Positions 31,432 to 57,379 of a stretch of DNA of 64,000 bases are shown one piece after another. The first letter of the stretch is position 1. The number at the start of each line of letters is the position of its first letter. The notes beneath the pieces are model-generated. The model was not told where the DNA came from and did no database searches. It saw only the letters and a list, made by a program, of their open reading frames with translations. A program made the translations under genes and the position numbers. The DNA comes from an uncultured Syntrophomonadaceae bacterium (GTDB lineage Bacteria > Bacillota > Dethiobacteria > DTU022): the NCBI GenBank assembly GCA_964467475.1, contig CAYXQO010000005.1, forward strand, positions 8,894 to 72,893. The letters are read 5' to 3'.

Positions 31432-31437
31432 AACATG

Positions 31438-31790
31438 GGGGCGTAAGGATTCGACGGGGGTCGTGGAGACAAGAGCTGCAAGCCCAGGACCATGACCTGG
31501 ATAAAACATGGAATGGCTATAGACGCCAAACCGAACGTAGCACTCGCTGCTTAAAAAATAAGCAGCGCATCCCTCCTTTCCCTGGCCGGGGGAAAGATAA
31601 GGGGTGTCAAAAAACCGGCCTACCGCAGTAGCGGCGGCCCCACCGCTGCTTCGGGAAACCTAACGGGGCTGGCGTCGCAGGATCCTTGTTCCGGGGAGCC
31701 CGCGGCGCGAGAACAAAACCGGGACTAAGCTTGTAGACGCTCTTGTAGCCGGACCTTCGGACGCGGGTTCGATTCCCGCCGCCTCCACCA
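31438..31790 (+). ncRNA. ssrA: tmRNA (SsrA)
   Basis: Begins GGGGGCGUAAGGAUUCGACGGGG and ends with a tRNA-like T-arm GGGTTCGATTCCCGCCGCCTCCACCA. An internal tag reading frame ends ...DAKPNVALAA-TAA. Confidence 0.9.
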
Positions 31791-31798
31791 AAATCCGT

Positions 31799-31826
31799 GC
31801 CAAGGGGACGGGGTTGTTGACACATT
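31799..31826 (+). repeat. REP element family 1 copy, immediately 3' of tmRNA
   Basis: GCCAAGGGGACGGGGTTGTTGACACATT, 27/28 identical to the 14098 copy. Confidence 0.7.
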
Positions 31827-31880
31827 TTCCACTATGGAATGTGAAATTAATAAGGAATAATTAATTACCGTGCACGAGCC

Positions 31881-31905
31881 ACGAGCCTATCCTGGCTCGT
31901 TTTTT
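31881..31905 (+). terminator. Rho-independent terminator (ACGAGCC-tatcct-GGCTCGT-TTTTT) downstream of tmRNA and REP copy
   Basis: 7-bp GC-rich stem, a 6-nt loop and a T5 tract. Confidence 0.6.
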
Positions 31906-31914
31906 GCGTAAAGT

Positions 31915-31942
31915 GCCAGGGGGACGGGGTTGTTGACACATT
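31915..31942 (+). repeat. REP element family 1 copy (carries TTGACA -35-like hexamer)
   Basis: GCCAGGGGGACGGGGTTGTTGACACATT. A diverged copy, GTCAGCGGGACGGGGATATTGACAAT, lies at 31966-31990 and is followed by TATAAC about 17 bp downstream. Confidence 0.7.
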
Positions 31943-32012
31943 CCAGGCAGGTTTGTCAGCGGGACGGGGATATTGACAATACCCCCAGGATGGTATAACT
32001 TACCTGCTGGAG

Positions 32013-32780
32013 GTGTTGTCATTGCCAAGAAAAGCCCGTCAAAAAAGTGAAAGCGGAATCTACCATATCATTATGCGAGGCATAAACCGGCAGGTTATTT
32101 TTTGCGAAGATGAAGATTTTCACAAGTTACTACAAGCCCTTCAGCACTATAAAAATATATGCGGCTACCATCTTTATGCTTACTGCTTGATGAGCAACCA
32201 CGTTCATCTCTTAATGAAGATTGAACACGAGTCCCTGGCCCAAATTATGCGCAGAGTCTGTGGTAAATTTGTCTACTGGTATAATAAAAAATATGACCGT
32301 TCTGGATATTTGTTTCAGGACAGGTTCAGGAGTGAGCCGGTAGAAGATGATTCGTACCTTCTAACAGTAGTTAGATACATCCACCAAAATCCCCTGAAAG
32401 CCAATCTTGTGAGGAAAATAGAAGATTATCCATGGAGCAGTTATAATGGTTATATCAGGCGGGACAGTCTAATCGATAAAGATTTTGTTTTAAACATATT
32501 TGACAATAATAGTAAAAAGGCACTGAGAGAATTTATAAAATTCAACAATCAAAGCTCAGACCAGGAATGTATCGATATAGAAGAAATCAAAAGGATTAGC
32601 GATAAAGAAGCAGTAAAAATAATTGAGCGAGTGTGCAAGGTTGACAGGGCGGATGAAATTCTTAACTTTGACAAAAAGAGCAGAACTGGTTTTCTGCGCA
32701 AGTTAAAAACGGAAGGGTTATCTGTTAGACAGCTTGAAAGATTAACCGGGATAAACAGGGGGATTATACAAAGAGCGTAA
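32013..32780 (+). CDS. REP-associated tyrosine transposase (IS200/IS605-like Y1 HuH transposase with C-terminal HTH extension)
   Basis: 255 aa, YHIIMRGINRQVIF...YCLMSNHVHLLMK (HuH = HVH), a downstream catalytic Tyr region (YIHQNPLKA...) and a C-terminal HTH (LSVRQLERLTGINRGIIQRA). Confidence 0.82.
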   Translation: MLSLPRKARQKSESGIYHIIMRGINRQVIFCEDEDFHKLLQALQHYKNICGYHLYAYCLMSNHVHLLMKIEHESLAQIMRRVCGKFVYWYNKKYDRSGYLFQDRFRSEPVEDDSYLLTVVRYIHQNPLKANLVRKIEDYPWSSYNGYIRRDSLIDKDFVLNIFDNNSKKALREFIKFNNQSSDQECIDIEEIKRISDKEAVKIIERVCKVDRADEILNFDKKSRTGFLRKLKTEGLSVRQLERLTGINRGIIQRA

Positions 32781-32826
32781 ACTGATTTGTGTCAACAACC
32801 CCGTCCCCCTGGCACTTGTAATTGTA

Positions 32827-32855
32827 TTGCTTAAAGGGGTGCTATTTGCTATAAT
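32827..32855 (+). promoter_or_regulatory. Sigma-A-like promoter of tRNA-Ala (TTGCTT -17- TATAAT)
   Basis: -35 at 32827-32832 and -10 TATAAT at 32850-32855, with the tRNA starting 11 nt downstream. Confidence 0.5.
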
Positions 32856-32865
32856 ACCCCTGCGA

Positions 32866-32941
32866 GGGCGTGTAGCTCAGGTGGGAGAGCGCTTGGCTCG
32901 CATTCAAGAGGTCAGGGGTTCGAGTCCCCTCACGTCCACCA
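32866..32941 (+). tRNA. tRNA-Ala (anticodon CGC)
   Basis: Cloverleaf by eye: acceptor GGGCGUG/CACGUCC with the G3:U70 Ala identity pair, anticodon loop CUCGCAU, T-arm AGGGG-TTCGAGT-CCCCT and an encoded CCA. Confidence 0.88.
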
Positions 32942-33037: not shown

Positions 33038-34465
33038 ATGGAGAGAATTAAGCGCAAGCATCTTTTATACTATATCGTCCTACCCGTGCTGATTATCGCC
33101 CTGGCAACATTTACTTTTGCCTGTGACGAGGAAACTGGAGCCGAGGTCGATGTTCCTGAAGGAGCCATCTCTGTGCCGGATGATCATGACAGCATCCAGG
33201 AAGCAATCGACGTTGCAGATGACGGGGATACCATAGTAGTCAGCCCGGGGACCTATACCGAAAACCTCAATTTTGCAGGTAAGAACATTACTGTTATGAG
33301 CACGAACCCCGAAGATCCTGAAGTAGTGGAAGAAACGGTTATTGATGGAGGCGGGACCGACTCGGTAGTTGTTTTTGAAAATGGTGAAGGAGAAGAGGCA
33401 GAATTATCCGGGTTTACCATTACCGGTGGCAGTGGAAACAACGTTTCCCTGGAGTTTGAGATAGAAGGTGAGACCCGTGAAGAGACCTCCGATTACGGCG
33501 GCGGCATTCTGGTCATGAACGAGAGTTCCCCGACAATCGCGAACAACGTGATCATTAACAATATAGCTGAGCGTGGCGGGGGAATCATGGTGCATCAATC
33601 CGCCCCCTTTATCCGTGATAACAAGATCATTGAAAATGTTTCCGACGGCGGCGGTGGAGGCTTGTTTGTAGCGAGCGCTTCTGCCACGGTCAGGGGAAAT
33701 GAAATATCGGGCAATACCGCCGGACGCAGTGGAGGAGCAGTTGCCATAAGCGGTGATGGCGAGGCAATGTCCGTTTTTGAAAATAACACGATCAACAATA
33801 ACCGGGCCCAAAACGGTGCCGCTTTTTCAATTTATGAAGCTAACCCGAGCATTTTTAACAATACCGTGATCAATAACAATGCTGAAAATAACGGTGGCGG
33901 TTTTTACCTGTTAAGTTCTTCCCCGGAGATATCAGACAACGATATTTCCGACAACTATGCCACTGAAACAGGCGGTGGGATGACGATTATGGTAGAGTCC
34001 GCACCCTCGATTGAAGGAAACGTCATGATAGGCAATGAGGCTGGTGCCGGCGGGGCGATCGCGGTCAATGTCGATTCTTCCCCCTTGCTTGAAGCCAATA
34101 CAATATCTGACAACCAGGCCCAAAACGGCGGCGGCCTCGTCTTTGCCCAGGGCGGCTCTGCGGAAGTGAACAACAACACGATTACCGATAACTATGTTGA
34201 GCGTAACGGTGGCGGGATCTTTGTACAGCAATCCAACCCTGTTTTTACCGGCAACACGATCGGTAGCAATGAAGCCAGACGTGATGGCGGCGGCTTGTTT
34301 GCAGTGCATGAAGCAACCGTCGGTGTTTATGAAAATATTTTTGAAAACAATCGTTCCAGGGAAGGCGGAGCAATGCATTTTTCCGAAGGAGCCGTTCTGG
34401 AATTAAACGATCCCGATGACAACACCTATGAAGATAATGCCCCCGATGACATTTACGAAGAATAA
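33038..34465 (+). CDS. Lipoprotein with right-handed parallel beta-helix repeats (pectate-lyase/NosD-like fold), acidic C-terminus
   Basis: Lipobox LATFTFAC. Repeated GGGIxV/NNxIxxN beta-helix turns. About 475 aa. Confidence 0.72.
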   Translation: MERIKRKHLLYYIVLPVLIIALATFTFACDEETGAEVDVPEGAISVPDDHDSIQEAIDVADDGDTIVVSPGTYTENLNFAGKNITVMSTNPEDPEVVEETVIDGGGTDSVVVFENGEGEEAELSGFTITGGSGNNVSLEFEIEGETREETSDYGGGILVMNESSPTIANNVIINNIAERGGGIMVHQSAPFIRDNKIIENVSDGGGGGLFVASASATVRGNEISGNTAGRSGGAVAISGDGEAMSVFENNTINNNRAQNGAAFSIYEANPSIFNNTVINNNAENNGGGFYLLSSSPEISDNDISDNYATETGGGMTIMVESAPSIEGNVMIGNEAGAGGAIAVNVDSSPLLEANTISDNQAQNGGGLVFAQGGSAEVNNNTITDNYVERNGGGIFVQQSNPVFTGNTIGSNEARRDGGGLFAVHEATVGVYENIFENNRSREGGAMHFSEGAVLELNDPDDNTYEDNAPDDIYEE

Positions 34466-34554
34466 CTCTTAAAAGAAGCCTGCATGCAAAATAGCCCCGG
34501 CCGTGATCATTATTACTCGCGGCCGGGGTAATCAGCGCCTTTGGGAGGGCAGGC

Positions 34555-37380
34555 ATGGCAAAAAAAGCAAGCGCTAAAGGGAAAAAGAAAAAACAAATTA
34601 AAGATAGCACTGGCAATCTGCCCAAAGGATTTAGCAACCTGGCCGAAAAATGGCTTCCCCTGGTAATGTTCATTGCAGTGGCGTTGCTTTTGCTGATCGG
34701 TCCTTTTCAGCGCGGCTTGTTTTTCCCCAGCGAACTTTTAATTGCAAAAGCTTGCGTCTTTGCCCTGTTAATGCTCTGGGGCTACTTCAGGCTGCTTAAA
34801 AAAGACAGCCGCCTTTTTTTTGGCACACCCCTTGACCTATGCCTGGGGATTTTGCTCCTGGCTTACCTGCTTTCCCTCTTCTTTGCTGTTCACCAGCGTG
34901 AAGCCCTCGAAGAAGTTTTAAAAGTTACCTCCTACCTGGTAATTTACCTGGTTGTGTTTGATTTATGCCGGTACATGGTTTTACCCGGTTTTTTAAAACC
35001 CGGCTCCGGCAACGGCAAGATGGGCAGCAAAAAAACTGAAAACAGTGCAGCCGGTAATTCTTCCTCCACTGCAGAGAGCGGTGGAATTAAACCCGCTTCT
35101 TCCGGTTCACCAGCCGGTGAGGATAGGATCAAAACTGTTCCGGCTGCCGGTAAAAATCCCTTAATTTCCCCTGAGGCGGATGCCCCGGGCGTAAGCCTGC
35201 TCCTGCACCTTTTGCTGCTGGCAGCAGTGGTCGTGACCGTAGCCAGCCTGGGTGTTCCCGCAGGGCACTGGGACTTCCCCGGCGCTTATGCAGATGAGCG
35301 CATCGCCTCACCGATGGGTTATGCCAATACTGCTGCTGCCTACCTGATGACTGCATTTTTGCTGGCCCTGGGCCTGGCCCCCCTGGCTGCCAAATGGTGG
35401 CAGCGCACCCTTTACCTGGCCCCGGCAGCAATCATGCTTTTTACGGTGGTCCTCACCTTTTCCCGCGGCGCCTGGGTGCTTTTGCCCCCTCTTTGCCTGC
35501 TTTTAGTCCTGCTGGCGGCGCCCGGTGAAAGGTTAAGGTCCCTGCTTTACCTGGCGGCAGCCTCTTTAGCTGCAGTGCCGGCTGCCCTGCTCGCCGACCC
35601 GGTTTATCGTTCTGATGCCCCGGCCATGGCCTGGCTTTTGGTTATCGCCGCAGCACTCGCAGCCGTGCTTTTAGGAATGGCGGTTGAACTATACTTAAAC
35701 CTCGGGAGAAAAGTGCGCCTTGCTATCGGCGGGGGCACCGTCCTCGCTGCCGCAGCCGCCCTGTTTATTATTTTTATCCTGCCGGCCCTGGGGCCTGTCC
35801 ACCTCGAGCGCGGCCCTGACCAGGCAGCTGAAACCAAAACAGTTGAGCAAATTATTAGTGATCCTCACCCGGAAACAGATTACCGGTTGACCCTGGAGGT
35901 TAAGGCCGAGGAAAGCCCCGCCGCTGCTAGCGAGGCAGATTATGCCTGGGGAGTAAAAGTTATAGGCGGTCTGCCCGACTATAAAGATGAAGAACTCTTT
36001 GATCACCGGGCGGACGCCACCGAAGGCTGGGAGACGAAAGAGTATTCATTTAAAACCGGGCCGGAAACCGAAAGACTGGAAGTGTTGATCTATAACCACT
36101 ATCCCGGCACGTCCGTAAGCGCCCGGAATGTTACCCTCAGTGCCGCCGGTGAAGAACACAACCTGACCTTTGCCCTGCACCGGATGCTGCCGGACCGGTT
36201 CTACGACCGCATTTTTTCTGTTTCTCTGGATCGCAATGTTGATGCCAGGTTTGAGTTTATGGGCGATGCCGTGAAAGTTATCGGCGACTACCCGGTTACC
36301 GGTATCGGAGGCGGCGGCTGGAATGCCGTATACCGCGCTTACCAGGAAACCCCTTACAACACTACCGAGGTGCACAACCACTTTTTACAGGTCTGGATAG
36401 AGGCCGGGATTTTTGGCTTTCTGGCTTTCCTGGGAATCTGGGTCAGTTGCCTGGCTGCTTTTATCCGCAATTGTTTTATTGATCAAGCAACGCCCCGCAG
36501 GTGGCAGTTCTGGACGGCATCTTTTGTGCCGGTAGCTGCTCTCGGTGCGCACAGTGTAATCGACTGGAACTTTTCAATGGCTGCCGTGGGGATCTTTCTC
36601 TTTGTCCTGCTCGGGGCTAACCGCAGCCTGGACCGTATCAACTGGTTTGCTCGCCTGAAAATCAAGACTAAAGACAGCAAACAAACGAAAGGACGCGGCC
36701 TGCTGATCGGAGGCGCCGCCCTGGTACTCGGTTTGTTCCTGTTAGTCTACAGCCTCCTCTTACTTGACGGACTCCATGCTACCTGGCGCTCCCAGGAAGC
36801 GGCGCAGCGGGGCAACTTAGAAGCAGCCCAGCAAGAGGCACGCAGGGCAATCAGCCGGGACCCCTACCGTGCCGACAACTACTACAACCTGAGCCTGCTT
36901 AAAGAAGAACAGGCCCGCCAGGCAGGAGTCCAGGAAAACATGGAAAAGGTGATCGAGCTGGCCAGGCAAGCTTACGAACGCGAACCCTACAACCCCCGGT
37001 ATGTTATGCATTACGGTAGCCTCCTGCTGCACAACGTAGGGGTGGAAGAAGGACTTGCTCATATCGACCGGTTGATGGAGCTGCGGCCTTTTTCAGAAAG
37101 CAGCTATATCCAGGCCGCTTCTTCACGCCTGCAGTTGGCCAGCTTTTATTTAAACGAAGGAGCTGATGCACAAGCCCGCCGCCACCTCAGAGACGTCCAG
37201 GAAATCGAAGAAAAAATGACTGAAAAACTCGGGCACAGCGAACCCCTGGCTTTTGCCATGGGCAGGACCCATGAGATGCTCGGCAACCGGGCCAGGGCAG
37301 TGGAATACTTAGAAAGTATCGAGGAAGATGAAGACATGTATGAAGAAGCGCAGGAGCTGCTCCAGGAACTGCAGGATTAA
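34555..37380 (+). CDS. O-antigen ligase/Wzy-like polytopic membrane protein with large extracytoplasmic domain and C-terminal TPR repeats
   Basis: 941 aa with about 12 TM helices, a Wzy_C-like segment (FTFSRGAWV) and a TPR-like C-terminus. A paralog lies at 61308-63509. Confidence 0.72.
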   Translation: MAKKASAKGKKKKQIKDSTGNLPKGFSNLAEKWLPLVMFIAVALLLLIGPFQRGLFFPSELLIAKACVFALLMLWGYFRLLKKDSRLFFGTPLDLCLGILLLAYLLSLFFAVHQREALEEVLKVTSYLVIYLVVFDLCRYMVLPGFLKPGSGNGKMGSKKTENSAAGNSSSTAESGGIKPASSGSPAGEDRIKTVPAAGKNPLISPEADAPGVSLLLHLLLLAAVVVTVASLGVPAGHWDFPGAYADERIASPMGYANTAAAYLMTAFLLALGLAPLAAKWWQRTLYLAPAAIMLFTVVLTFSRGAWVLLPPLCLLLVLLAAPGERLRSLLYLAAASLAAVPAALLADPVYRSDAPAMAWLLVIAAALAAVLLGMAVELYLNLGRKVRLAIGGGTVLAAAAALFIIFILPALGPVHLERGPDQAAETKTVEQIISDPHPETDYRLTLEVKAEESPAAASEADYAWGVKVIGGLPDYKDEELFDHRADATEGWETKEYSFKTGPETERLEVLIYNHYPGTSVSARNVTLSAAGEEHNLTFALHRMLPDRFYDRIFSVSLDRNVDARFEFMGDAVKVIGDYPVTGIGGGGWNAVYRAYQETPYNTTEVHNHFLQVWIEAGIFGFLAFLGIWVSCLAAFIRNCFIDQATPRRWQFWTASFVPVAALGAHSVIDWNFSMAAVGIFLFVLLGANRSLDRINWFARLKIKTKDSKQTKGRGLLIGGAALVLGLFLLVYSLLLLDGLHATWRSQEAAQRGNLEAAQQEARRAISRDPYRADNYYNLSLLKEEQARQAGVQENMEKVIELARQAYEREPYNPRYVMHYGSLLLHNVGVEEGLAHIDRLMELRPFSESSYIQAASSRLQLASFYLNEGADAQARRHLRDVQEIEEKMTEKLGHSEPLAFAMGRTHEMLGNRARAVEYLESIEEDEDMYEEAQELLQELQD

Positions 37381-37410
37381 TTAGATTCGGTGAAAGGTGG
37401 TCCCTAACCT

Positions 37411-38367
37411 TTGAAAAAAGTAAAGCCCCTTCTTTTTCGCCTGGTGCCCGTGGTGCCCGGTTTCCCCGGGTGTTGCCAGGCACAGGCGCCGGACGCTTTA
37501 AGCGGAGCAGCTACCGGCACTGCCGCCAGCTGCGGCAAGCACATGCTTTTAGCTTTAACCACCGGTTTGTTAGCCCTGGTTTTGCTGCTAAATGTAAGCG
37601 GTTGCGCAACCGGCCCACTTTCAAGCGAAGATCCCGCCGGAGCGCCGGAACAGTTGCCCGAAAACCAGGGGCCAGACAATGGAAAGGATGCTGAGAAAAT
37701 GGAAGAAGAAAAAACCGGTTTGCAAAATAACCTGCCCCCGTTGGACCGGGATGTGCCAGAGAACCTAAAGACGGCTACCCTGGCCATGGGCTGATTCTGG
37801 GGTCCTGATGCCCGGTTCGGGCAAATTGAGGGAATCTACAGGACCCGTGCCGGTTACGCCGGCGGGAGCACAGAAAAACCGACTTACGAAAATCTGGGCG
37901 ACCATATTGAAACCTTCCAGGTGGATTACGATCCCAACCAGATCAGCTATAGTGAAATCCTGGAGATCTTCTGGAAGGAACATAACCCCACCCGGCAGGC
38001 CTGGTCGAGGCAGTATATGGCTGCCGTCTTCTACGAAAACGAAGAGCAGGAAAGAATTGCCCGGCAGAGCAAGGAAAAAGTAGCGAGGGAGCTGCAAAAA
38101 GAGATCCAAACAGAGATCATCTCCCTGGACAACTTTTATCTCGCCGAAGGCTACCACCAGAAATATTACCTCCGGAGCCAGGCAGCATTGCTTGCTGAAA
38201 TTAAGGCATATTATCCCGAGGTCGAAGGTTTTACCAATTCCACGGTTGCAGCCCGGCTAAACGGCATTGTTGGCGGGCACGCAGATGCCGCCCTGGTGGA
38301 AAAAGAAATCGACAGCTACGGACTTTCTTTGGAAACCCGCGAACTCGTGGAATTTATCGTTTATTAA
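37411..38367 (+). CDS. msrA: Peptide-methionine (S)-S-oxide reductase MsrA, predicted selenoprotein (in-frame TGA 37792-37794 at the catalytic Cys position), with lipoprotein signal peptide
   Basis: One frame across the TGA reads ...TATLAMG-U-FWGPDARFGQIEGIYRTRAGYAGG...YDPNQISYSEILEIFWKEHNPT, against the canonical AMGCFWG. There are no other stops between 37795 and 38367. The upstream part has lipobox LLLNVSGC and a low-complexity linker. Confidence 0.7.
37800..37846 (+). promoter_or_regulatory. Candidate bacterial SECIS hairpin 6 nt downstream of the in-frame UGA
   Basis: Outer stem GGGTCCTG(37800-37807)/CAGGACCC(37839-37846) enclosing the inner hairpin GCCCG-GTT-CGGGC (37810-37822). Confidence 0.45.
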
Positions 38368-38375
38368 AAACAGTC

Positions 38376-38405
38376 TTGCTAAAAAGATGCAGCTGTAGTT
38401 ATAAT
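38376..38405 (+). promoter_or_regulatory. Promoter of tRNA-Val (TTGCTA -18- TATAAT)
   Basis: -35 at 38376-38381 and -10 at 38400-38405. Confidence 0.45.
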
Positions 38406-38434
38406 GATTATAGCAAGATAAAATGGAAGTTTGT

Positions 38435-38509
38435 GGGGACATAGCTCAGGGGGAGAGCGCTTGATTCACATTCAAGAGGCCGCTGGTTCGAAACCAGCTG
38501 TCCCCACCA
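38435..38509 (+). tRNA. tRNA-Val (anticodon CAC)
   Basis: Acceptor GGGGACA/TGTCCCC, anticodon stem CTTGA/TCAAG with loop TTCACAT, T-arm GCTGG-TTCGAAA-CCAGC and encoded CCA. A GGGGGTTC...GAACCCCC-TTTT hairpin follows. Confidence 0.8.
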
Positions 38510-46636: not shown

Positions 46637-47551
46637 ATGAGAAAAGCACTGCAGCGTAACCCGGGCAAGCACAAACCGGTCTGGCGCGTCCTGGGAGAAA
46701 GCGCTCGCGGCGCCGCCCATGCCCGGTGCGGCCGGGCGAACCAGGATGCGATCAGCTGGCGTCCCCTCAAGAACGGGGCACGGTATGCAGCCCTGGCCGT
46801 AGCAGACGGTCACGGCGGCGCCCGGTACTTCCGCAGCAGGACAGGTGCGCACTTAGCCGCAGAAAATGCCGTCCGGGTATTAGAGGAATTCAGGCGGGCG
46901 CACCGCTTTACGGCCCCCCTTTCGGTGGTCAAGAACGTGGCCGAGGAAAAACTGCCCTTTTTACTGTACCGCCGGTGGCAGGAAGCGGTGGAGGAACATT
47001 TTAAAAATAATCCGCTCAGCGAAGCCGAACGCGAACAGCTGCCTGCAAACGCTTCAACGGCAAAAGCGGCGGAGGAGAGCCCGCACCTCTGCTACGGGAC
47101 CACCCTGCTGGCCCTGCTTTTAACCCCGCGCTACGCCGTGGTCCTGCAGCTCGGCGACGGCGATATTCTCACCGTCTCCGAAAAAGGCGAGGTAATGCGG
47201 CCGCTTCCTGCGGACCCGGCCCTTTTTGCCGAAGAAACCAGCTCGCTCGGCATGCCGCAAGCCTGGCGGGAATTTCGCGTCTGCTTCCAGGCCTTTACCG
47301 GAAAATATCCCGCCCTGTTCATGGTTTCCACCGACGGTTATGCCAACTCATTTCAGGGCGACCGCGAGTTTTTAAAGGTAGGCCCCGATCTTTTCAATCT
47401 TCTTAATACCTGCGGTCCCGGCGAGGTCAGCGCCAACCTTTATAAATGGCTTGAAGAAGCATCCCGGCAGGGTAGCGGCGACGACGTGACCCTGGGGCTG
47501 ATCTACCGGGTTACGGCAGCACAGCAAAATAGGCTTTGGCGGAGGTTATGA
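46637..47551 (+). CDS. PP2C-family Ser/Thr protein phosphatase
   Basis: ADGHGG motif, GTTLL...GDGDI. 304 aa. Confidence 0.85.
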   Translation: MRKALQRNPGKHKPVWRVLGESARGAAHARCGRANQDAISWRPLKNGARYAALAVADGHGGARYFRSRTGAHLAAENAVRVLEEFRRAHRFTAPLSVVKNVAEEKLPFLLYRRWQEAVEEHFKNNPLSEAEREQLPANASTAKAAEESPHLCYGTTLLALLLTPRYAVVLQLGDGDILTVSEKGEVMRPLPADPALFAEETSSLGMPQAWREFRVCFQAFTGKYPALFMVSTDGYANSFQGDREFLKVGPDLFNLLNTCGPGEVSANLYKWLEEASRQGSGDDVTLGLIYRVTAAQQNRLWRRL

Positions 47552-47913
47552 AAATGGAAAATATGCCGAATGTAAAAGTAGTAATGGCCCGCTGCAGTGG
47601 TAATAATAAAAGTTTTGGCATTCGCCTGGAGGAAGTCACTGCCGGCAACTGGCTGGCCGACTGGGCTTTTGATATCAAGGATCAGCAGGCCCGCAAGGAA
47701 GGCTACCATGAAAACGTGGTCGCCGGCGAGTTCGACTTTGCCACAAACTACCCGGGCTGCCCCCACTGCGGCCGTGATTCCCTGGTGCGCTGTATTTGCG
47801 AAACCGTTTTCTGCTGGGACGGAGACCACCGCAAGGTAAAATGCCCCGCCTGCGGCAGAAAGGGCCGCATCGGCACCGCGATCAGCAGGCTTAAAACAGA
47901 CATTGACCGCTAA
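47536..47913 (+). CDS. Small Cys-rich zinc-ribbon protein (possible TerY-C-like metal-binding partner)
   Basis: 125 aa with CPHCG...CIC...C...CPACG Cys clusters. Overlaps the PP2C stop and precedes the kinase. Confidence 0.55.
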   Translation: MAEVMKMENMPNVKVVMARCSGNNKSFGIRLEEVTAGNWLADWAFDIKDQQARKEGYHENVVAGEFDFATNYPGCPHCGRDSLVRCICETVFCWDGDHRKVKCPACGRKGRIGTAISRLKTDIDR

Positions 47914-47940
47914 ATCTGCGGAGGTGAAGGCGTTAACCCC

Positions 47941-49323
47941 ATGAACCAGATCCTTGAAATCGGCCAGGAGGTCATCTCCAAAAACACGGGCAAAGTGATC
48001 GCGGTAGAGCAGTTCCTGGGCGGCGGCGGCCAGGGCGAGGTTTACCGGGTCAGCCTGCAGGGCAGGCCTTTAGCCCTGAAATGGTACTTCCCGGAGGCGA
48101 TCACCCCTGCTTACCGTAAAAACTTAGAACGCCTGATCGACAAAGGTCCGCCCAACCGCAACTTCCTCTGGCCGATGGAAATTGTCTTCGACGAGAATTT
48201 AAAATCCTTCGGTTACCTGATGCCGCTCCGGGACGAGCGTTACAAGGGCATCGTCGATTTAATGAAAAGGCGGATCGACCCTTCTTTCCGGGCCCTCGCC
48301 CTGGCCGGCTTCAACCTGGCCCACAGCTTCCTGCAGTTGCACTCCAAGGGGATGTGCTACAGCGACATTTCCTTCGGCAACGTTTTCATGCACCCCGAAA
48401 GCGGCGATATCTTGATCTGCGACAACGACAACTGCATTTTCGACGGGGAAAAAGCAGGCATCAAGGGCACACCGCGCTTCATGGCGCCCGAAGTGGTCTT
48501 GGGGGGCAACCCCAATACCCAGTCCGACCTTTTTTCCCTGGCCGTCCTGCTTTTTTACATGTTTTTCCTGCACCACCCCCTGGAAGGCCGCCGGGAGGCG
48601 GAAATCAAGTGCTTCGACCTGCCGGCGATGAAAAAACTCTACGGCGCAGAGCCCCTTTTTATCTTCGACCCTGCAAATGATGCCAACCGCCCCGTGCCCG
48701 GCCTGCACGACAATGCCCTGATTTACTGGCCGCTTTATCCCAACTTTTTACGCGGGCTGTTCACGCGGGCCTTTACCACCGGGATCAGCGACCCGCAAAA
48801 CGGGCGCGTCCGCGAAACCGAGTGGCGCGCGGCGATGCTGCGCCTGCGCGACTGCATTATCTACTGCCCGGCCTGCGGTGCGGAGAATTTCTGCGATCCC
48901 GGGCAAGGGGGCGAAGAGGATTACGCAAGCGCAGACCCCGGCGCCCAGCCCGGCCGGGACTCAGGCGGCACAGAAGCCGGCCGCTCCCAGGCAGGAGTAA
49001 GTTGCTGGTCCTGCCGGCGGGAGGTGCCCCTGCCCCCGCGACTTAAACTACCCTCCAGGCCGGTGATGCTAAACTACGATACCAAACTTTACCCGCACCA
49101 TATCGATCAAAGCGCCGGTTTTGATTTTAATCATCCCCTGGCCGAGGTTAACCGGCACCCCGAAAAGCCCCAAATCTGGGGGCTGAAAAACACCGGTTCA
49201 GAAAAATGGGTTTGCACCACCGTAGACGGTGCGGTGAAAGACGTCCCTCCCGGGAAAAGCATCACCCTGGCGGTGGGAACTAAGATTAATTTCGGCAAAA
49301 GCGAGGGGTTAATAGAAAAATAA
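47941..49323 (+). CDS. Atypical (non-RD) Ser/Thr protein-kinase-like protein with Zn-ribbon and C-terminal FHA-like domain
   Basis: Glycine loop GGGGQGEVY, the LALK lysine and GTPRFMAPE. The catalytic loop reads YSDISFGN instead of HRDxxxxN. Also CPACG...CWSC and a C-terminal G..N.GS..W....G......G..I.L..G.KINFG FHA-like pattern. Confidence 0.78.
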   Translation: MNQILEIGQEVISKNTGKVIAVEQFLGGGGQGEVYRVSLQGRPLALKWYFPEAITPAYRKNLERLIDKGPPNRNFLWPMEIVFDENLKSFGYLMPLRDERYKGIVDLMKRRIDPSFRALALAGFNLAHSFLQLHSKGMCYSDISFGNVFMHPESGDILICDNDNCIFDGEKAGIKGTPRFMAPEVVLGGNPNTQSDLFSLAVLLFYMFFLHHPLEGRREAEIKCFDLPAMKKLYGAEPLFIFDPANDANRPVPGLHDNALIYWPLYPNFLRGLFTRAFTTGISDPQNGRVRETEWRAAMLRLRDCIIYCPACGAENFCDPGQGGEEDYASADPGAQPGRDSGGTEAGRSQAGVSCWSCRREVPLPPRLKLPSRPVMLNYDTKLYPHHIDQSAGFDFNHPLAEVNRHPEKPQIWGLKNTGSEKWVCTTVDGAVKDVPPGKSITLAVGTKINFGKSEGLIEK

Positions 49324-49326
49324 CGG

Positions 49327-49405
49327 AATGCCCAGGGGACGGTTCGAGCGTCCCGAAGCACAGCGAAGGCCGAAGGGAAGACGATGGAACCGTCCCCCTG
49401 GCATT
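49327..49405. repeat. Long hairpin (19-bp stem AATGCCCAGGGGACGGTTC / GAACCGTCCCCCTGGCATT, 41-nt loop) right after the kinase stop
   Basis: The arms are reverse complements with one indel. It shares the GGGACGGTTC core with the family-3 REPs. Confidence 0.6.
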
Positions 49406-49455
49406 ACGCTACCCCCCTGACACAGGCATAGACCTACCCAAACGGAGGAACGGCA

Positions 49456-52182
49456 GTGAACAACCAGGTAGCGCGCGTGCTAAAAAATTTAATCGAAGAA
49501 TACGGCAGTACTTTAGGCAGTGATGCTCGGCGTTGCCGGGCGCTTTTGAATGACTACTGCGGTCAATATAAACGGGAAGTCAACGCCCTGCTGCTTGCCC
49601 TCCAGCAGGGTGTGCCCGCAGCCCTGCTTGCTTCCCCGGAAACACCACCTGAGATCATCGAAAACCGCCTTACCGCTAAACTGGCTGAAGAACTGGGCTT
49701 GCGCGTAGAGATTTCCCGCTGGGCAGTGCAAACCTGGGCTTTTGCCCTGGGGATGAGGTCCGTAGAACCGGCAGGTTCGCTCCTTAAAAAAGAGAATCAA
49801 GAGCCCAAACCTAAAAAACCGGCAGGAAAAAAGCAAGGCCCTGCACCACGGCAGGGCTTAAGCGCACCCGCTAAAGAAGAGCTCCCCGGCAAGCCACCAG
49901 AAAAACTTAGCCTGCGCGGCCACCGCGAAGCGGTGCTCGCAGCGGCCTTTTCACCTGATGGCAAGCTGCTTGCGACCGGCAGCAGGGACTATACCGCTAC
50001 CGTATGGGACACCGCAACGGGCGAAGAATTATTGGTCCTGCGCGGCCACAACGGTTACGTGGAAGCGGTGGCCTTTTCCCCAGACGGCAAGTTTCTTGCC
50101 ACCGGCAGCGGCGATTATACCGTCCGCCTCTGGGAAGTGGCTTCCGGTGAAGAGAAAGCCACCATGCGCGGCCATAAAGCCTGGGTTTTCGCAGTGGCCT
50201 TTTTCCCGGACGGCAAGCTGCTTGCCTCGGGCAGCTGGAATAAGACGGTGCGCATCTGGGATACAACCTTTCAAAAGAAGCTGCAGATCCTGCGCGGCCA
50301 CGAGGCGTGGGTGCTTTCAGTAGACGTTTCCCCCGACGGGAAACTGCTTGCCTCCGGCAGTCGTGACGGCACTGTCCGTCTCTATGAAACCCCCGGCGGC
50401 AAAAACCTGGCCGTGCTGCGCGGCCACAAAGATTGGGTTAACGCGGTCGCTTTTTCGCCCTGCGGGAAGCTCCTCGCCTCGGGCGGCAATGATCACAACA
50501 TCAGGCTCTGGGATACCGCGTCAGGGGAAGAACTGGCCGTAATGCAGGGCCACAGCAAGCCCGTGCAAACAATAAGCTTTGCACCCGACGGACGCCTGCT
50601 TGCCTCGGGCAGCCGTGACGAAACCCTGCGCCTCTGGGACCCGGCTTCTGCGGGCGAACTGGCGGTTATCAGCGGGCATGAAGGCTTCGTGGGCGCGGTG
50701 GCCTTCGCCCCCGCAGGCGGTTTTCTCGCCTCAGGCGGGGCAGATGGCAAGATCCGTCTCTGGGATGCCGGAAAATGGCTTGAACGTCTGGCTGAAATTT
50801 ACGAGGCCACTCCCTCCCTGCACCTCCGCCACCAGCATACCGGCCGCCGGGAAACGGCAAAAGAAGACTCTGCTTTAAACGACCAAGCAGCAGATCAGGA
50901 AACTGCCGCACCGGAAGAGCAGGCCGGAAAGAAAAAGAAACAGGAAAGCGGCGGTGAAGCAGCTCCTGCGGAAGGTAAACCGGGCAAAGAAACACTTGAA
51001 ACTGTTGCTGAAGAAAACTCAAGGCCACAGGAGAAAGCTGAGGGTTCTAAAGCGCAGGAAAAGCAAAAGCAGAAAGCCCCGCCCGACGACAGACCCGCCG
51101 GCTCAACCGGTGCTGCGCAAGCGGATCAGCATACCACCCTGCCCCCATCTAAGCGCCCGGCCCCCGGGAAAACACCCTCCACCCGCTACCAGGTGCCTTA
51201 CGAGCTGGCAGTGCTGCAGGGCCACAGCGGCTGGGTCTGGAGCCTCGCCTTTTCCCCGAATGGCAAGTCTCTTGCCTCGGGCAGCCGGGACAAGAGCGTG
51301 TGCCTCTGGGACCTTACCCCTGCAGACGACGCTTCGCTTTCCGGGCAGTTCTGGCCCGGCAGCTTTAACGGTAAGCGCAAAGTCCTGCGCGGCCACCGCA
51401 AGACCGTCTTTTCAGTTTCCTTTTCCCCTGACGGCAGGCTGCTTGCTTCAGGCAGCGGCGATAAGACGATCCGCCTCTGGAACACTTTCTCAGGCAAAGA
51501 GCTCGCCGTCCTAAGGGGCCATGACTATACCGCCGGTGAAGTTCTCACAGTAGCCTTTTCCCCCGGCGGCAGGCTGCTTGCCTCGGGCAGCCTCGATAAA
51601 ACCGTGCGCCTCTGGAACGTGGCAGCGCTAAGAGATAAATCAATCCTACGCCGCCTGTGGCAGGTATTTTCCGGTAAAAAAGCACCTGTCCTGCGCGGCC
51701 ATCGCAACCCGGTGCTCGCGGTTGCCTTTTCCCCGAGCGGCCGCCTCTTAGCTTCCGCCAGCTCTGATGAAACCGTACGCCTGTGGGATGTAGCCACCGG
51801 CGACGAGCTTGCCGTTTTTTCCGGCCATGAAGACTGGGTCAACGCCGTATCTTTTTCCCCCGACGGCAAGTCTCTTGCCTCTGCCGGCTACGATAAAACC
51901 GTGCGCCTGTGGAACCTTTCCACCCGCAAAGAGAGCCTGATCATGCGCGGCCACACCAACGTGGTCCACTCGGTTGCCTTCTCCCCCGGCGGAGACCACC
52001 TCGCCTCCGGCAGCCTGGACCGCACCGTCAGAATCTGGGACGTGGCCACCGGGGAAGAACGGGCGCTACTAAAAGGCCACCAGGACTACGTGGTCCCGGT
52101 AGCCTATTCACCGGATGGCAGGGTGCTCGCCTCGGGCAGCTATGACCGCACCGTGCGCCTCTGGCGCCTGCTCTCCTTTTAA
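49456..52182 (+). CDS. Giant WD40-repeat protein: about 150-aa N-terminal domain, two 7-bladed propellers separated by a K/E/P/A-rich linker
   Basis: At least 14 repeats of the LRGH...V..VAFSPDG..LASGS.D.T.RLWD type. 908 aa. Confidence 0.9.
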   Translation: MNNQVARVLKNLIEEYGSTLGSDARRCRALLNDYCGQYKREVNALLLALQQGVPAALLASPETPPEIIENRLTAKLAEELGLRVEISRWAVQTWAFALGMRSVEPAGSLLKKENQEPKPKKPAGKKQGPAPRQGLSAPAKEELPGKPPEKLSLRGHREAVLAAAFSPDGKLLATGSRDYTATVWDTATGEELLVLRGHNGYVEAVAFSPDGKFLATGSGDYTVRLWEVASGEEKATMRGHKAWVFAVAFFPDGKLLASGSWNKTVRIWDTTFQKKLQILRGHEAWVLSVDVSPDGKLLASGSRDGTVRLYETPGGKNLAVLRGHKDWVNAVAFSPCGKLLASGGNDHNIRLWDTASGEELAVMQGHSKPVQTISFAPDGRLLASGSRDETLRLWDPASAGELAVISGHEGFVGAVAFAPAGGFLASGGADGKIRLWDAGKWLERLAEIYEATPSLHLRHQHTGRRETAKEDSALNDQAADQETAAPEEQAGKKKKQESGGEAAPAEGKPGKETLETVAEENSRPQEKAEGSKAQEKQKQKAPPDDRPAGSTGAAQADQHTTLPPSKRPAPGKTPSTRYQVPYELAVLQGHSGWVWSLAFSPNGKSLASGSRDKSVCLWDLTPADDASLSGQFWPGSFNGKRKVLRGHRKTVFSVSFSPDGRLLASGSGDKTIRLWNTFSGKELAVLRGHDYTAGEVLTVAFSPGGRLLASGSLDKTVRLWNVAALRDKSILRRLWQVFSGKKAPVLRGHRNPVLAVAFSPSGRLLASASSDETVRLWDVATGDELAVFSGHEDWVNAVSFSPDGKSLASAGYDKTVRLWNLSTRKESLIMRGHTNVVHSVAFSPGGDHLASGSLDRTVRIWDVATGEERALLKGHQDYVVPVAYSPDGRVLASGSYDRTVRLWRLLSF

Positions 52183-54087: not shown

Positions 54088-55272
54088 TTAACCGGTCCTG
54101 TGAAATGAAGACTGCAAGATTTTTTCCACTTCCGCTGTGTCCACCGGCCGCAGGTTGTTGCCGGCCCGCTCCGGCGTAAACATGCCCTCGATTAAGCCCG
54201 ATACGTTATCTTTGGTAACCCCGTATTTAGAAAGCATTTTATTAATTCCCACCTGCTCAAAAAGGGCAGTTATTTTTTTATGCAGCTCCTCCACCGAGCG
54301 GCAGCCACAGGCCCCGGCCACTTTTTGAAAGCGCCCGTCGTCATCTTTTGCATTGTACTCAAGCAAGGCTGGCAGGGTGAAGGCGCAGGCCAGCCCGTGC
54401 GGGCAGCCTAAGGCGGCGGTAACAGGATAGGAAATCGAGTGAGCCAGGGCGGTGCGGGTAGTGCTGATGCAGATGCCGCCCATTAAGCTCGCTGTAAGCA
54501 TTTCTGAGCGGTATTCTAAGTTGCCCAGGTCTTCGATCAAAAAAGGCAGGATCGATAAGACTATATTTATCGCCTCCCCCGCCAGGGCCACGTTTAAGGG
54601 CCCGGCATTAACATTCCAAACCGACTCCAGGGCGTGGGAAAGCACATCCAGCCCGGTGATTACCGTGGTTTCTTCCGGCAGCGAAAGGGTTAAGCCTGCG
54701 TCCAGCAGGGCGGCCCGGGGAAATAAATCTTTTTTGGCAAGAGAATATTTTTTCTGCGCCTGCAGGTCCCAGATCGTGGCAAAATTAGTCGCCTCGCTGC
54801 CGGTGCCGGCCGTGGTAGGCACCGCCACCAGCGGAAGTAGCGGTAAATCCGGCAGTTTTTGGGCACCCCTGAAATGCTCTTTTAACGAAAAAGCATCTGC
54901 CCCTGAGTTAAGCAGCAGGCTCAGCGCTTTAGCCGTATCGATCGCACTGCCCCCGCCGGCGCCTATTAAAAAGTTAAAGCCCTCACTTTTATAGCGTTTT
55001 TGCCAGGCCTCAAGATCTGCAAGATCGGGGTTTGGTTTTACCTCACCCATCACCTCTACCGGCAGGCCATTTTCTACCAGCGAATTTTTAAGCCTTGCAG
55101 CCTGGCCCCTTTCGACGAAACCGGGTGAGGTGACCAGCAGGCCCTTAGGCTCTTTTTCGCTTTCTACTTTCCTTAGCTCTTCTTTAACCACAGCAGGCAA
55201 TGTTTCAATTTTCCCCGGCCCGGAGATTACTCTAACCGGGTTATAAAAAGACCACTCGTTGCTGTAAAGCAA
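54088..55272 (-). CDS. Iron-containing (group III) alcohol dehydrogenase; predicted phosphonoacetaldehyde reductase (2-hydroxyethylphosphonate-forming)
   Basis: 394 aa Fe-ADH fold (GAGGGSAIDTAKA, His-rich metal site). Last gene of the ppm-ppd operon. Confidence 0.8.
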   Translation of the reverse strand: MLYSNEWSFYNPVRVISGPGKIETLPAVVKEELRKVESEKEPKGLLVTSPGFVERGQAARLKNSLVENGLPVEVMGEVKPNPDLADLEAWQKRYKSEGFNFLIGAGGGSAIDTAKALSLLLNSGADAFSLKEHFRGAQKLPDLPLLPLVAVPTTAGTGSEATNFATIWDLQAQKKYSLAKKDLFPRAALLDAGLTLSLPEETTVITGLDVLSHALESVWNVNAGPLNVALAGEAINIVLSILPFLIEDLGNLEYRSEMLTASLMGGICISTTRTALAHSISYPVTAALGCPHGLACAFTLPALLEYNAKDDDGRFQKVAGACGCRSVEELHKKITALFEQVGINKMLSKYGVTKDNVSGLIEGMFTPERAGNNLRPVDTAEVEKILQSSFHRTG

Positions 55273-55390
55273 AGTTTTAAACCGCTCCTTTGTGCTTATG
55301 CTTGTGTTCTATGCTAAGGTTTACCCGCCTTATCTTTAAAACAAACCGGGCAAACTCTGAGTGTAACCATGCAAACCCGGTACTTCTTTT

Positions 55391-56131
55391 TTATGTTTCA
55401 GAGTGGAGGTAGCGCTTCACCTTTGCCAGGTCTTCTTCATCGTCGATCTCGGTGCAGAATTCATTTCGCAGCGGCACCGGGTGGAGGACAAGCTCGTTTA
55501 ATATATTGTTCAGGGCGTCTTCAGCGTAAACCTTCAGGCGCCCTTCTTTTTCGAAGTTTTTCATTTGATCGACCCAGGCGGCGAAGCTTTTTCTTGTCAG
55601 CTTGTAAAAGGGGATTAAAAAGACGCAGGCCTCACCGAAAACCTCCACCCCGATTTTTTTGACCCTGCCGCCTTTGATTTCTGCCTTGAAATCTTTTTCC
55701 GGAAGGCTTACCTGCGGGTTGGTTAAAACGGCATCGCTGAAAGGGGTTTTTAGCAGTTTTTCTGAGACCGCCCGGTCATAAACCAAATCGCCGTGTAAAA
55801 GGATCAGCTGATCACCTGCCCCCAAAGCGCCTAAAATGTTATCAGCTGCCAGCAACAAAGAATAGATGTAGTTGGTTTCCTCGTAGCGGGGGTTGTGGAC
55901 AAAGCTGAAATTAACTTTTTCGAAATGCCTTTTCAGGTAGGCTTCAAGCATCTCAGAGAAAGGCCCGGTGGTGATGAGGATCTTGTCGATCCCTGCTTCC
56001 TGCAGGCTTTTTACCTGCCGGCTTATAATGGTTTCAGTACCGGTGATTTCAACTAAGCATTTCGGCTGCGTTTTAGTCAGCTCGCCCATGCGGGAACCGG
56101 TGCCTGAATTTAAGATTACCGCCATCTTCAT
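55391..56131 (-). CDS. LicC/MobA-like NTP-transferase (predicted phosphonate or phosphocholine cytidylyltransferase)
   Basis: MKMAVILNSGTGSRMG...KCLVEI nucleotidyltransferase N-terminus. 246 aa. Confidence 0.78.
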   Translation of the reverse strand: MKMAVILNSGTGSRMGELTKTQPKCLVEITGTETIISRQVKSLQEAGIDKILITTGPFSEMLEAYLKRHFEKVNFSFVHNPRYEETNYIYSLLLAADNILGALGAGDQLILLHGDLVYDRAVSEKLLKTPFSDAVLTNPQVSLPEKDFKAEIKGGRVKKIGVEVFGEACVFLIPFYKLTRKSFAAWVDQMKNFEKEGRLKVYAEDALNNILNELVLHPVPLRNEFCTEIDDEEDLAKVKRYLHSET

Positions 56132-57379
56132 TTAAGCTGATCCTTTCTGTAAAAACTGCATAAATTGCCGTTTGTTTTCCTGCGGGGTGCTCTTGGGACG
56201 TCCCAGCTCTTTTCTTGCCCCCGGGCGCACCCGGATCTCTAAAAAGACCGGCCCCTGGTTTGCTTTGACCTTCTCTAAGGCCGCGTCCAGCTGTTCTTTT
56301 GTTTCTGCCCGGAAGCTTTTGTTGTAGCCGCAGGCTTTAGCAATTTTCACTAAATCGATATTGCCTGCCACCGTGGGCTGCCCGCCTACCGACTCATGGG
56401 CTCCGTTGTTAAAGACAAGGTGTTTGTAGTTGGCTGCCCCGCTGGTGCCGCTGGTAGCAAGCGCTCCCATGTGCATAAGCACCGCCCCGTCGCCGTCAAA
56501 GCAGTAGATCTCCCGCCCGGGCAGGTTTAAGGCGACGCTTAAGGCGATTTGCGAGGCATGCCCCATGGAACCGACATTTAAAAAATCCTTCTCGTGGCTT
56601 TCTTCGCTTCTTTCCCGGTACTCGTAAATCTCCCGGGAAAGTTTACCGGTGGTAGAAATAACCGCCGCCCCCGGTTGCAGGCTTTCAAGCGCTATAATTG
56701 CCGCTTCTTCCCTGGTCAGGGGGCACTGTTCAAAAGAGCCTCTAAAACCTGCCTGCCCGGCCGGTTCCCCCGGGTCTTCACCTGCAACAGCGCCTCCTTT
56801 GAAGCCGGCTAAACTTGTTCTTGATGCATTTTCATTTTCTGCCTCGTAGGGGCCAAAAATATCCTTGCCTGCTACCAGGGCGTAGGGTTCGTTTAATGCC
56901 CGGATGTGCTCGGTCGCCTTGACCAGCTCCTCGTAAGCGTCTTCTTCCGTGCCCGGCAAAATAGAGTATTGCAGCCCCAGCGCTTGCAAAAGCGGTAAGG
57001 TTACCAGGCCCTGCTTTAAATGCTGCGGCTCATCCTCCAGGCCAGGCTCGCCCCGCCAGCCGATCAGTAAAAGCAGCGGCATGTTGTAAACCATGGGGTC
57101 GGTTAAGGATACCAGCGGGTTAATTGCGTTGCCCAGGCCGGAATTTTGCATGTAGACCAGCCCCGGCCTGCCGGTGGCCAGGTAATGTCCCGCCGCCAGT
57201 GCCACCGCTCCACCTTCGTTGGCCGCGGTGATATGACGCCCGGCGCCGCTTTGATCGGCAATGCAGGCGGTTATATTTTTGAGGAGAGAATCGGGCACCC
57301 CGGTGAAAAAATCAATCCCCTGCTTCAACATTGAATCATAAAAAAACTGGCAATCAACCATCAAAAAAACCCTCCCCAA
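56132..57379 (-). CDS. ppd: Phosphonopyruvate decarboxylase (TPP-dependent, fused alpha/beta)
   Basis: N-terminus ...GIDFFTGVPDSLLK... and a TPP-binding GDG...N motif characteristic of phosphono/sulfopyruvate decarboxylases. Confidence 0.88.
   Translation of the reverse strand: MGRVFLMVDCQFFYDSMLKQGIDFFTGVPDSLLKNITACIADQSGAGRHITAANEGGAVALAAGHYLATGRPGLVYMQNSGLGNAINPLVSLTDPMVYNMPLLLLIGWRGEPGLEDEPQHLKQGLVTLPLLQALGLQYSILPGTEEDAYEELVKATEHIRALNEPYALVAGKDIFGPYEAENENASRTSLAGFKGGAVAGEDPGEPAGQAGFRGSFEQCPLTREEAAIIALESLQPGAAVISTTGKLSREIYEYRERSEESHEKDFLNVGSMGHASQIALSVALNLPGREIYCFDGDGAVLMHMGALATSGTSGAANYKHLVFNNGAHESVGGQPTVAGNIDLVKIAKACGYNKSFRAETKEQLDAALEKVKANQGPVFLEIRVRPGARKELGRPKSTPQENKRQFMQFLQKGSA

Follow-up and report, generated by a model that had tools for sequence, protein, structure and literature searches.

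The 64,000-nucleotide stretch of DNA from an uncultured Syntrophomonadaceae bacterium analyzed here (in the following, the window, to which all positions refer) carries msrA, a gene for a methionine sulfoxide reductase A with an in-frame TGA in place of its catalytic cysteine codon. We are fairly confident that it encodes a functional, membrane-anchored selenocysteine (Sec, U in sequence motifs) enzyme of the type known from Clostridium (Alkaliphilus) oremlandii OhILAs (CoMsrA), together with a probable cytoplasmic isoform. The recoding event itself is already known, as Sec-MsrA with the active-site motif GUFWG/H is a recognized bacterial selenoprotein family (PMC13188914; PMC1976440). The variant with a predicted export signal is widespread, and no description of an exported or extracytoplasmic Sec-MsrA was found in the literature searched: a 2026 review of the family never uses the terms 'signal peptide' or 'periplasm' (PMC13188914), and the surveys come without a discussion of localization.

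The frame of 318 codons contains a single internal stop, the TGA at position 128, which is flanked by the residues NLKTATLAMG and FWGPDARFGQ. For profile searches, a cysteine was put in place of this stop. Residues 121-257 then matched the Pfam domain PMSR (PF01625) with an E-value of 2e-43 and 148.6 bits (cutoff 23.7), and the NCBIfam model msrA (TIGR00401) scored 132.4 bits, above its cutoff of 108.1. The C-terminal match to PF20939 ('Selenoprotein methionine sulfoxide reductase A, helical domain') is marginal, with 24.4 bits at a cutoff of 23.7, and is backed by a structural alignment that extends to chain residue 199 of the 209 residues of CoMsrA. CoMsrA has been characterized kinetically as well as structurally, and its structures are available as PDB entries 4LWJ-4LWM, 4U66, 4W8C, and 7C13, of which 4LWJ, 4U66, and 7C13 represent the closest solved relatives of the window protein (E ~4e-58; query residues 114-311 aligned to chain residues 2-199 at ~47 % identity). 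In this alignment, the internal stop falls exactly onto the catalytic Cys16, just as the first-pass annotation of this DNA had predicted, and the active-site motif accordingly reads G127-U128-F129-W130-G131. Y149, E167, Y202, and the run Y248-H249-Q250-K251-Y252 are invariant across 17 homologs. Cysteines occur only at residues 21, 22, 41, and 65 and thus not in the enzyme body, where Sec is the only redox residue ('1-Cys' type). The same holds for CoMsrA, a proven selenoprotein of this type that is recycled by glutaredoxin rather than thioredoxin (PMC4333827). By every criterion that can be tested, the gene is a member of the Sec-MsrA family.

The TGA is strongly conserved at this position. 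A scan of species-representative genomes returned the 80 nearest loci, the best of which matched the window gene at 59 % identity, and 77 of them carry TGA at the catalytic codon (TGY in the remaining 3). These TGA loci span Bacillota, Desulfobacterota, Nitrospirota, Chloroflexota, Actinomycetota, Planctomycetota, Acidobacteriota, Spirochaetota, Synergistota, and others, about ten phyla in total, and the initial notion of Sec-MsrA as known from a few anaerobic Firmicutes has to be widened. Among the hosts are Syntrophomonadaceae-like metagenome-assembled genomes from soda lakes, Desulfosarcina alkanivorans PL12 (L073, a lipobox form), an Olavius symbiont, Desulforamulus aeronauticus (DSM 10349; L019, which has no signal), and Tindallia. 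Additionally, syntenic loci arranged as SmpB, tmRNA, NosD-like, Wzy_C, msrA were reached through truncated 180-residue homologs from the database; in these loci, the upstream open reading frame (ORF) likewise terminates in TGA at exactly the catalytic codon. In four syntenic lineages, both gene halves are in frame at only 55-61 % identity.

Since four independent assemblies (L088-L091) share an identical sequence with this TGA, a sequencing error does not account for the stop, and since TGA is the ordinary terminator of 6 of the 43 window genes, the genetic code is standard. This normal use as a stop would also suit a disrupted pseudogene or two separate ORFs, i. e., a 127-residue membrane peptide and a 148-residue MsrA fragment, and automatic gene calling splits the gene in precisely this manner both in the ORF list of the window (37411-37794 and 37921-38367) and in the public gene calls of the four independent metagenome assemblies. 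Such a true stop is nevertheless hard to reconcile with a TGA that coincides exactly with the catalytic codon in 77 of the 80 loci, across many phyla, with both halves being conserved in frame, including strand beta-1 (ETATLAxG) directly before the TGA, and with a covarying hairpin downstream of it (see below). The 148-residue fragment would furthermore be without the active site and miss about 40 residues of the fold; as initially surmised, the ORF at 37921 represents no more than the C-terminal part of msrA. We give this explanation practically no credence, and the comparative data have effectively refuted it.

Some further observations concern the active-site region. Variants of the motif (GUFWD, GUFWH, and GUFWT) occur in L038, L054, and L085 together with the same hairpin, so that Sec forms are not restricted to Gly at the fifth position. 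Residues 108-231 of the window protein also show a weak partial match to NF041383 ('VPGUxxT family thioredoxin-like (seleno)protein, type 2'; NCBIfam profile positions 131-233, 43 bits at a cutoff of 275), which hints at an MsrA-like module inside another selenoprotein family.

The published model of the bacterial selenocysteine insertion sequence (SECIS) specifies a loop of 3-9 nt with a G among its two leading nucleotides, a stem of 4-16 bp, a spacing of 16-37 nt, and an energy of -7.5 kcal/mol or lower (PMC13188914). The mini-hairpin UGCCCG-GUU-CGGGCA, which sits within the codons for D-A-R-F-G-Q, fits this model in all respects, with its 3-nt GUU loop, a stem of 6 bp, a distance of 20 nt to the UGA, and -9.4 kcal/mol for the 21-nt upper hairpin (z -2.3 compared to shuffled sequences). 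Its conservation was assessed in 77 homologs, where it is 82 % paired (alignment columns 17-23 with 27-33, corresponding to 37808-37814 with 37818-37824 in the window) and three stem pairs exhibit compensatory double changes (26, 28, and 11). Double-change cells amount to 65, as compared to 28.9 +/- 4.9 in shuffles, and the covariation score is 0.270, as compared to 0.112 +/- 0.012 (none of 500 shuffles reached the observed value); when the 3' partners were slid as a control, scores of 0.03-0.11 resulted. Of the two-level hairpin originally proposed, this upper part is thus conserved, whereas the lower stem (GGGTCCTG/CAGGACCC) is 67 % paired over the 77 homologs, with three pairs mostly unpaired. 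The two-level structure is the minimum-free-energy fold in the window and has a z of -0.75, which is unexceptional when taken alone. An alternative RNAalifold consensus over the same homologs, in which the UGA itself is paired, was rejected, as it contains no covarying pair.

Constraint is also visible in the codons. The segment GAUGCCCGGUUCGGGCA downstream of the UGA is identical in the four closest lineages, synonymous sites included, and codon use is near-frozen among 77 distinct Sec-form sequences (Arg CGG in 54/55, Gly GGG in 73/77, Ala GCC in 40/42, and Ser TCC in 35/35 cases). Phe is encoded by TTT only after a CAG codon (11/21) and never together with CGG (0/54). In contrast, seven Cys-form homologs in which this peptide is also encoded have CGC as the Arg codon in 4 of 5 cases, keep 3-6 of the 7 hairpin pairs, and have the GUU loop in only 2 of 7 sequences (Fisher p = 5e-5 for the Arg codon in Sec versus Cys forms, the loci being phylogenetically related). 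Taken together, these comparisons identify UGA128 as a selenocysteine codon, at which Sec is presumably inserted. Two of the Cys forms (L093 and L094), in which 5-6 of the 7 pairs of the hairpin persist (GACGCCCGGTTCGGCAGT and GACGCCCGCTTCGGGAGT), look like recent Sec-to-Cys conversions; in L094, MsrB lies directly upstream of msrA. A second UGA recoding event in the window concerns prfB (release factor 2; 3772-4894), which has a classic programmed +1 frameshift: the zero frame ends with CTT TGA G (3838-3844) and the PCRF/RF-1 domains continue in the +1 frame.

Upstream of the catalytic domain, the window protein has an extension, with 127 residues preceding Sec128, in which the motif LLLNVSGC had been read as a lipobox. 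This region was evaluated in 75 distinct Sec loci, considering the stretch upstream of position Sec-30. The stop-free stretch has a median length of 50 codons in frame 0, as compared to 6 and 31 in the other two frames, and 50 of the 75 loci have a hydrophobic segment with a preceding start codon in frame 0, as compared to 0 and 1 of 75 in the others. Because both the signal segment and the open frame are specific to frame 0, the extension is real coding sequence. In the window protein, the hydrophobic segment (mean Kyte-Doolittle hydropathy of 2.68 over 15 residues) follows an n-region with the positive residues K2, K3, K5, R10, and K43, and the stretch L46-L60 is succeeded by VSGC (V62-S63-G64-C65; 37594-37605), in agreement with the lipobox pattern [LVI][ASTVI][GAS]C. 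The start motif MKKV is shared with L004 and L005. Corresponding segments of orthologs end in AAGC, PLGC, ISSC, IGGC, or LSGC, and the signal peptides of the nearest relatives L008 and L009 (MNNRLQEKHLFIATCFVLIAAIFLISSC and MQITKRFSYPILVLGLLAMTMLIIGGC) are textbook examples of the lipoprotein type, each having a Shine-Dalgarno (SD) sequence of its own. In total, at least 23 Sec loci have lipobox-like ends, twin-arginine motifs (TAT-type) occur in L052 and L061, and Cys-form homologs display the same range of anchors as Sec forms. The net charges on the two sides of the segment (+4 before and -7 after) correspond to the pattern expected for an N-in, C-out topology, and the signal is predicted to be either cleaved and lipidated at Cys65 or to persist as an uncleaved anchor. 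Judging from such predicted signals, export or anchoring is the majority architecture of the Sec-MsrA clade and not, as had been assumed, an unusual one. The predicted cytoplasmic tail moreover contains a Cys-Cys pair (C21-C22 in PGCCQ, 37471-37476) that also occurs in the L004 ortholog (PACCFRK), which may be a coincidence or a conserved feature.

The first-pass annotation overlooked a second conserved element, an internal SD sequence and ATG (Met97), which complicates a purely exported reading. The short form starting there has the predicted N-terminus (M)EEEKTGLQNNLPPLDR. Among the 50 forms with a hydrophobic segment, 35 have an ATG at codons -31 to -35 relative to Sec, within an otherwise unconserved linker, and the per-codon Met frequency is 0.14 in this interval versus ~0.02 elsewhere. 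An SD match of at least 5 nt is located 4-13 nt upstream of 65 % of these ATGs, as compared to 8 % of background codons (Fisher p = 2e-29, again for phylogenetically related loci). As the reading phase of the SD motif, and with it the encoded amino acids, varies between lineages, these data point to selection at the nucleotide level. In addition, the position of Met97 coincides with the start of the signal-less Cys homologs P0001-P0003. This suggests that an ancestral start persists as a second site of initiation, from which a cytoplasmic isoform of 222 residues would be made beside the exported one. It is also conceivable that only the exported form is made and that Met97 and its SD-like motif are left over from the ancestral start or form an ordinary part of the linker; 8-10 forms with a hydrophobic segment lack the internal ATG, which hence appears dispensable, and intragenic SD-like motifs are no proof of initiation. 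A relic should decay, yet the ATG persists in 35 of 50 lineages within a 5-codon bin, and the SD is maintained at the nucleotide level at spacings of 4-11 nt. We therefore regard an exported form alone as rather doubtful. A more general proposition is that one gene serves two compartments in at least eight phyla, with an upstream start that adds a signal, lipoprotein, or TAT anchor, the ancestral SD and ATG, and an external form that is recycled in an unconventional way; we put this forward tentatively, as somewhat short of an even chance. Comparable in-frame starts close to the 5' end of a gene and downstream of its signal sequence, proposed to keep part of the product cytoplasmic, have been described for speA, bamA, ivy, and yghG of E. 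coli (bioRxiv 10.1101/520783). There, the internal starts were mapped experimentally in one species, whereas the start within the window gene is proposed from sequence conservation across phyla.

Several points weigh against an anchored Sec enzyme with a cytoplasmic counterpart. Concerning decoding, neither selA, selB, and selD nor tRNA-Sec were detected within the 64-kb window (Rfam, and Pfam on 42 window ORFs), which is an ordinary Bacillota-like chromosomal stretch with SecA, PrfB, FtsEX, UvrABC, glycolysis genes, RNase R, SmpB, and tmRNA. A scan for other credible genes with in-frame TGA, used as a proxy for Sec usage, likewise found none in the window, and Rfam at gathering thresholds returned the tmRNA and two tRNAs there and no SECIS family. 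Folds of 49-75 nt around the UGA are no more stable than shuffled sequences (z about -0.7); single-sequence thermodynamics on this scale cannot support a SECIS, which is why the comparative analysis was needed, and the compared loci are phylogenetically related, so that p-values overstate their independence. The lack of Sec machinery in the window would agree with a readthrough of the UGA by a near-cognate or suppressor tRNA that inserts Cys or Trp. This is very improbable in our view, given a hairpin that fits the SelB-binding bacterial SECIS model and that degrades precisely where TGA becomes TGY, as well as a closest characterized homolog that is a proven selenoprotein (PMC4333827).

Further points of this kind concern localization. 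With 45 residues, the n-region is unusually long for a signal peptide, and the Cys of the lipobox is residue 65 from the TTG start (residue 21 if counted from Met45, which has no SD). The strict lipoprotein patterns PROSITE PS51257 and G+LPP restrict the residues at position -4 and place the Cys within the first 35 residues. The window protein, with Asn at -4, falls outside this strict pattern, while its orthologs L001, L005, L008, and L009 fit it. Moreover, the strong internal SD and ATG could render the short cytoplasmic form the main or only product. In the extreme case, ATG 37699 would be the sole start of a cytoplasmic Sec-MsrA of 222 residues, with the upstream stretch being untranslated or negligibly so. 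The cross-phylum conservation of this start, its coincidence with the start of signal-less homologs, and the alignment to CoMsrA, which begins just after it, all speak for this scenario, and in about 25 of the 75 Sec loci, which are devoid of an upstream hydrophobic segment, translation must begin at the internal ATG. It would, however, leave a 318-nt 'intergenic' region that encodes an in-phase signal peptide by chance, contrary to the frame-specific openness and signal content described above, the recognizable lipobox or TAT signals, and the SD sequences that upstream starts have of their own. We thus deem an exclusively cytoplasmic enzyme distinctly unlikely. Finally, the electron supply of an external form lacks an obvious candidate: in an enrichment analysis of 298 neighboring ORFs at ~75 loci, no Trx, Redoxin, CcdA, or DsbD family was among the enriched neighbor families, and extracytoplasmic turnover is left unexplained by the absence of a linked thioredoxin/CcdA/DsbD partner. 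No thioredoxin-fold or CcdA/DsbD domain is fused in the window protein either (Pfam). Only MsrB is broadly enriched (9 loci); Wzy_C and NosD-like neighbors are lineage-specific.

For the anchored enzyme with a probable cytoplasmic isoform, which we favor, the following scheme can be envisaged. SelB and tRNA-Sec, recruited by the UGCCCG-GUU-CGGGCA hairpin, would recode UGA128 to selenocysteine. Translation from the TTG at 37411 would yield a 318-residue precursor with a positive N-terminus, a hydrophobic segment with the lipobox VSGC, and an acidic linker, so that the catalytic domain would come to lie at the outside of the cytoplasmic membrane, attached either through a lipid at Cys65 or through a signal anchor that is not cleaved. 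The exported form may then reduce methionine-S-sulfoxide in surface proteins, while the same mRNA would probably also yield the cytoplasmic isoform of 222 residues through the internal SD and ATG. Going by the homology to CoMsrA, Sec128 would attack methionine-S-sulfoxide to give a selenenic acid that is subsequently reduced by a thiol, and because the mature domain is devoid of cysteine, this thiol must be an external one. A form outside the membrane would not be expected to have access to glutaredoxin. The external form may conceivably be recycled unconventionally, for example by environmental sulfide, low-molecular-weight thiols, or through a diselenide-linked dimer.

With CoMsrA, the window protein shares Sec in GUFWG, the lack of a resolving Cys in the body, the essential C-terminal helical domain, and ~47 % identity over the enzyme body. 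CoMsrA is a cytoplasmic protein of 209 residues that has no signal peptide and begins 15 residues before Sec, whereas the window protein has 113 extra N-terminal residues (tail, lipobox segment, and acidic linker) and the internal second start. The Sec-MsrA proteins of selenoproteome surveys, for instance from Olavius delta-symbionts and marine metagenomes, belong to the same family, and L038 is the locus of the Olavius Delta4 symbiont. Cys homologs with signals (P0007 with a lipobox, P0020 with TAT motif and lipobox, and P0018, P0036, P0037, and P0090 with a membrane anchor) resemble the window protein in the N-terminal anchor, the linker, and the motif PPxD...ETATxAxG-C/U-FWG; they differ by having Cys for Sec and a degraded SECIS hairpin.

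Neisseria PilB is an extracytoplasmic methionine sulfoxide reductase system of the Cys type. A surface system of this type is also known from Streptococcus pneumoniae, where MsrAB2 acts with the CcdA-Etrx lipoproteins (PMC3914529). Like the window protein is predicted to be, both are membrane-anchored or exported MsrA enzymes that repair methionine sulfoxide outside the cytoplasm. They use Cys, are fused to MsrB and/or a thioredoxin domain, and are linked to a CcdA/DsbD-thioredoxin electron pathway, whereas the window protein has Sec, no fusion, and no linked thioredoxin, CcdA, or DsbD, with MsrB being adjacent in only 9 of the ~75 loci.

Table 1. Features of the msrA region, with positions in the window.
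Feature	Positions	Strand	Basis
941-residue membrane protein, Wzy_C (O-antigen-ligase-like) and TPR regions	34555-37380	+	Pfam Wzy_C
SD-like GAAAGGTGG, 10 nt upstream of TTG 37411	37392-37400	+	read from sequence
msrA, full gene, long form (TTG start, Sec128, TAA stop)	37411-38367	+	
Tail at the N-terminus (residues 1-45; net charge +4), predicted to be a cytoplasmic n-region	37411-37545	+	sequence
Hydrophobic segment L46-G64 with the lipobox V62-S63-G64-C65 at its end; predicted signal anchor or lipoprotein signal	37546-37605	+	hydropathy, orthologs
Linker, acidic and rich in Pro/Gly (residues 66-113; net charge -7), with poor conservation	37606-37749	+	sequence
Internal SD-like GAAAGGA, 10 nt before ATG 37699	37682-37688	+	SD enrichment
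Internal in-frame ATG (Met97), 31 codons before Sec; candidate start of signal-less 222-residue isoform	37699-37701	+	conservation
MsrA catalytic (PMSR) domain, residues 121-257	37771-38181	+	PF01625, TIGR00401
UGA, predicted to be read as selenocysteine 128 in G-U-F-W-G	37792-37794	+	alignment; TGA at same codon in 77/80 genome loci
Lower stem of first-pass annotation, 37800-37807 with 37839-37846; forms in window and nearest relatives, not family-wide	37800-37846	+	
Bacterial SECIS core, 6-bp stem UGCCCG/CGGGCA (37809-37814 with 37818-37823), loop GUU (37815-37817)	37809-37823	+	folding, covariation
C-terminal helical domain typical of selenoprotein MsrA, residues 274-316	38230-38358	+	PF20939, PDB alignment

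In the window, msrA is preceded by a gene for a Wzy_C/TPR membrane protein that ends 30 nt before the msrA start and is the same neighbor in seven Syntrophomonadaceae-like loci. Since no promoter-like site was seen between the two, they are probably co-transcribed. The arrangement of a NosD-like beta-helix protein and a Wzy_C/TPR membrane protein of ~910-940 residues directly upstream of msrA (33038-37380) is conserved only in the Syntrophomonadaceae-like group (the window, L001, L004, L005, L008, L010, and L011). Between the tmRNA and the NosD-like gene (31437-32941), the window contains an IS200-like Y1 transposase ORF (32013-32780) and a tRNA-Ala(CGC), at a place where no ORF is seen in the syntenic loci L001, L004, and L005. 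A second, 'permuted' tmRNA called by ARAGORN (31696-32281) overlaps the transposase region and is probably spurious, with Rfam reporting one tmRNA. Within 38376-38509, directly downstream of msrA, a good sigma-70-like promoter (TTGCTA, 18-nt spacer, TATAAT) precedes tRNA-Val(CAC).

Two more distant regions may be mentioned. Positions 46637-52182 encode, in a row, a PP2C phosphatase, a Ser/Thr kinase-like protein, and a 908-residue protein with 14 WD40 repeats, resembling a eukaryote-like signaling module. On the reverse strand, a phosphonate-biosynthesis-like cluster (54088-63509) comprises a phosphoenolpyruvate mutase-cytidylyltransferase fusion, a thiamine pyrophosphate-dependent decarboxylase, an iron-containing alcohol dehydrogenase, and a nucleotidyltransferase; its location next to a second Wzy_C protein points to a surface glycan decorated with phosphonate.

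In every assembly examined, gene callers split Sec-MsrA into a 'hypothetical membrane protein' and a truncated MsrA, and the hairpin consensus (N)CCCRGUUYGGG(N') could serve to mend such annotations. The conserved internal start offers a directly testable case of dual localization by alternative initiation in bacteria. Summed up, the characterized cytoplasmic CoMsrA appears to represent a minority architecture, as most natural Sec-MsrA genes in anaerobes from many phyla encode a predicted export or anchor signal, which would imply a selenium-based repair of oxidized methionines on the cell surface of strict anaerobes.

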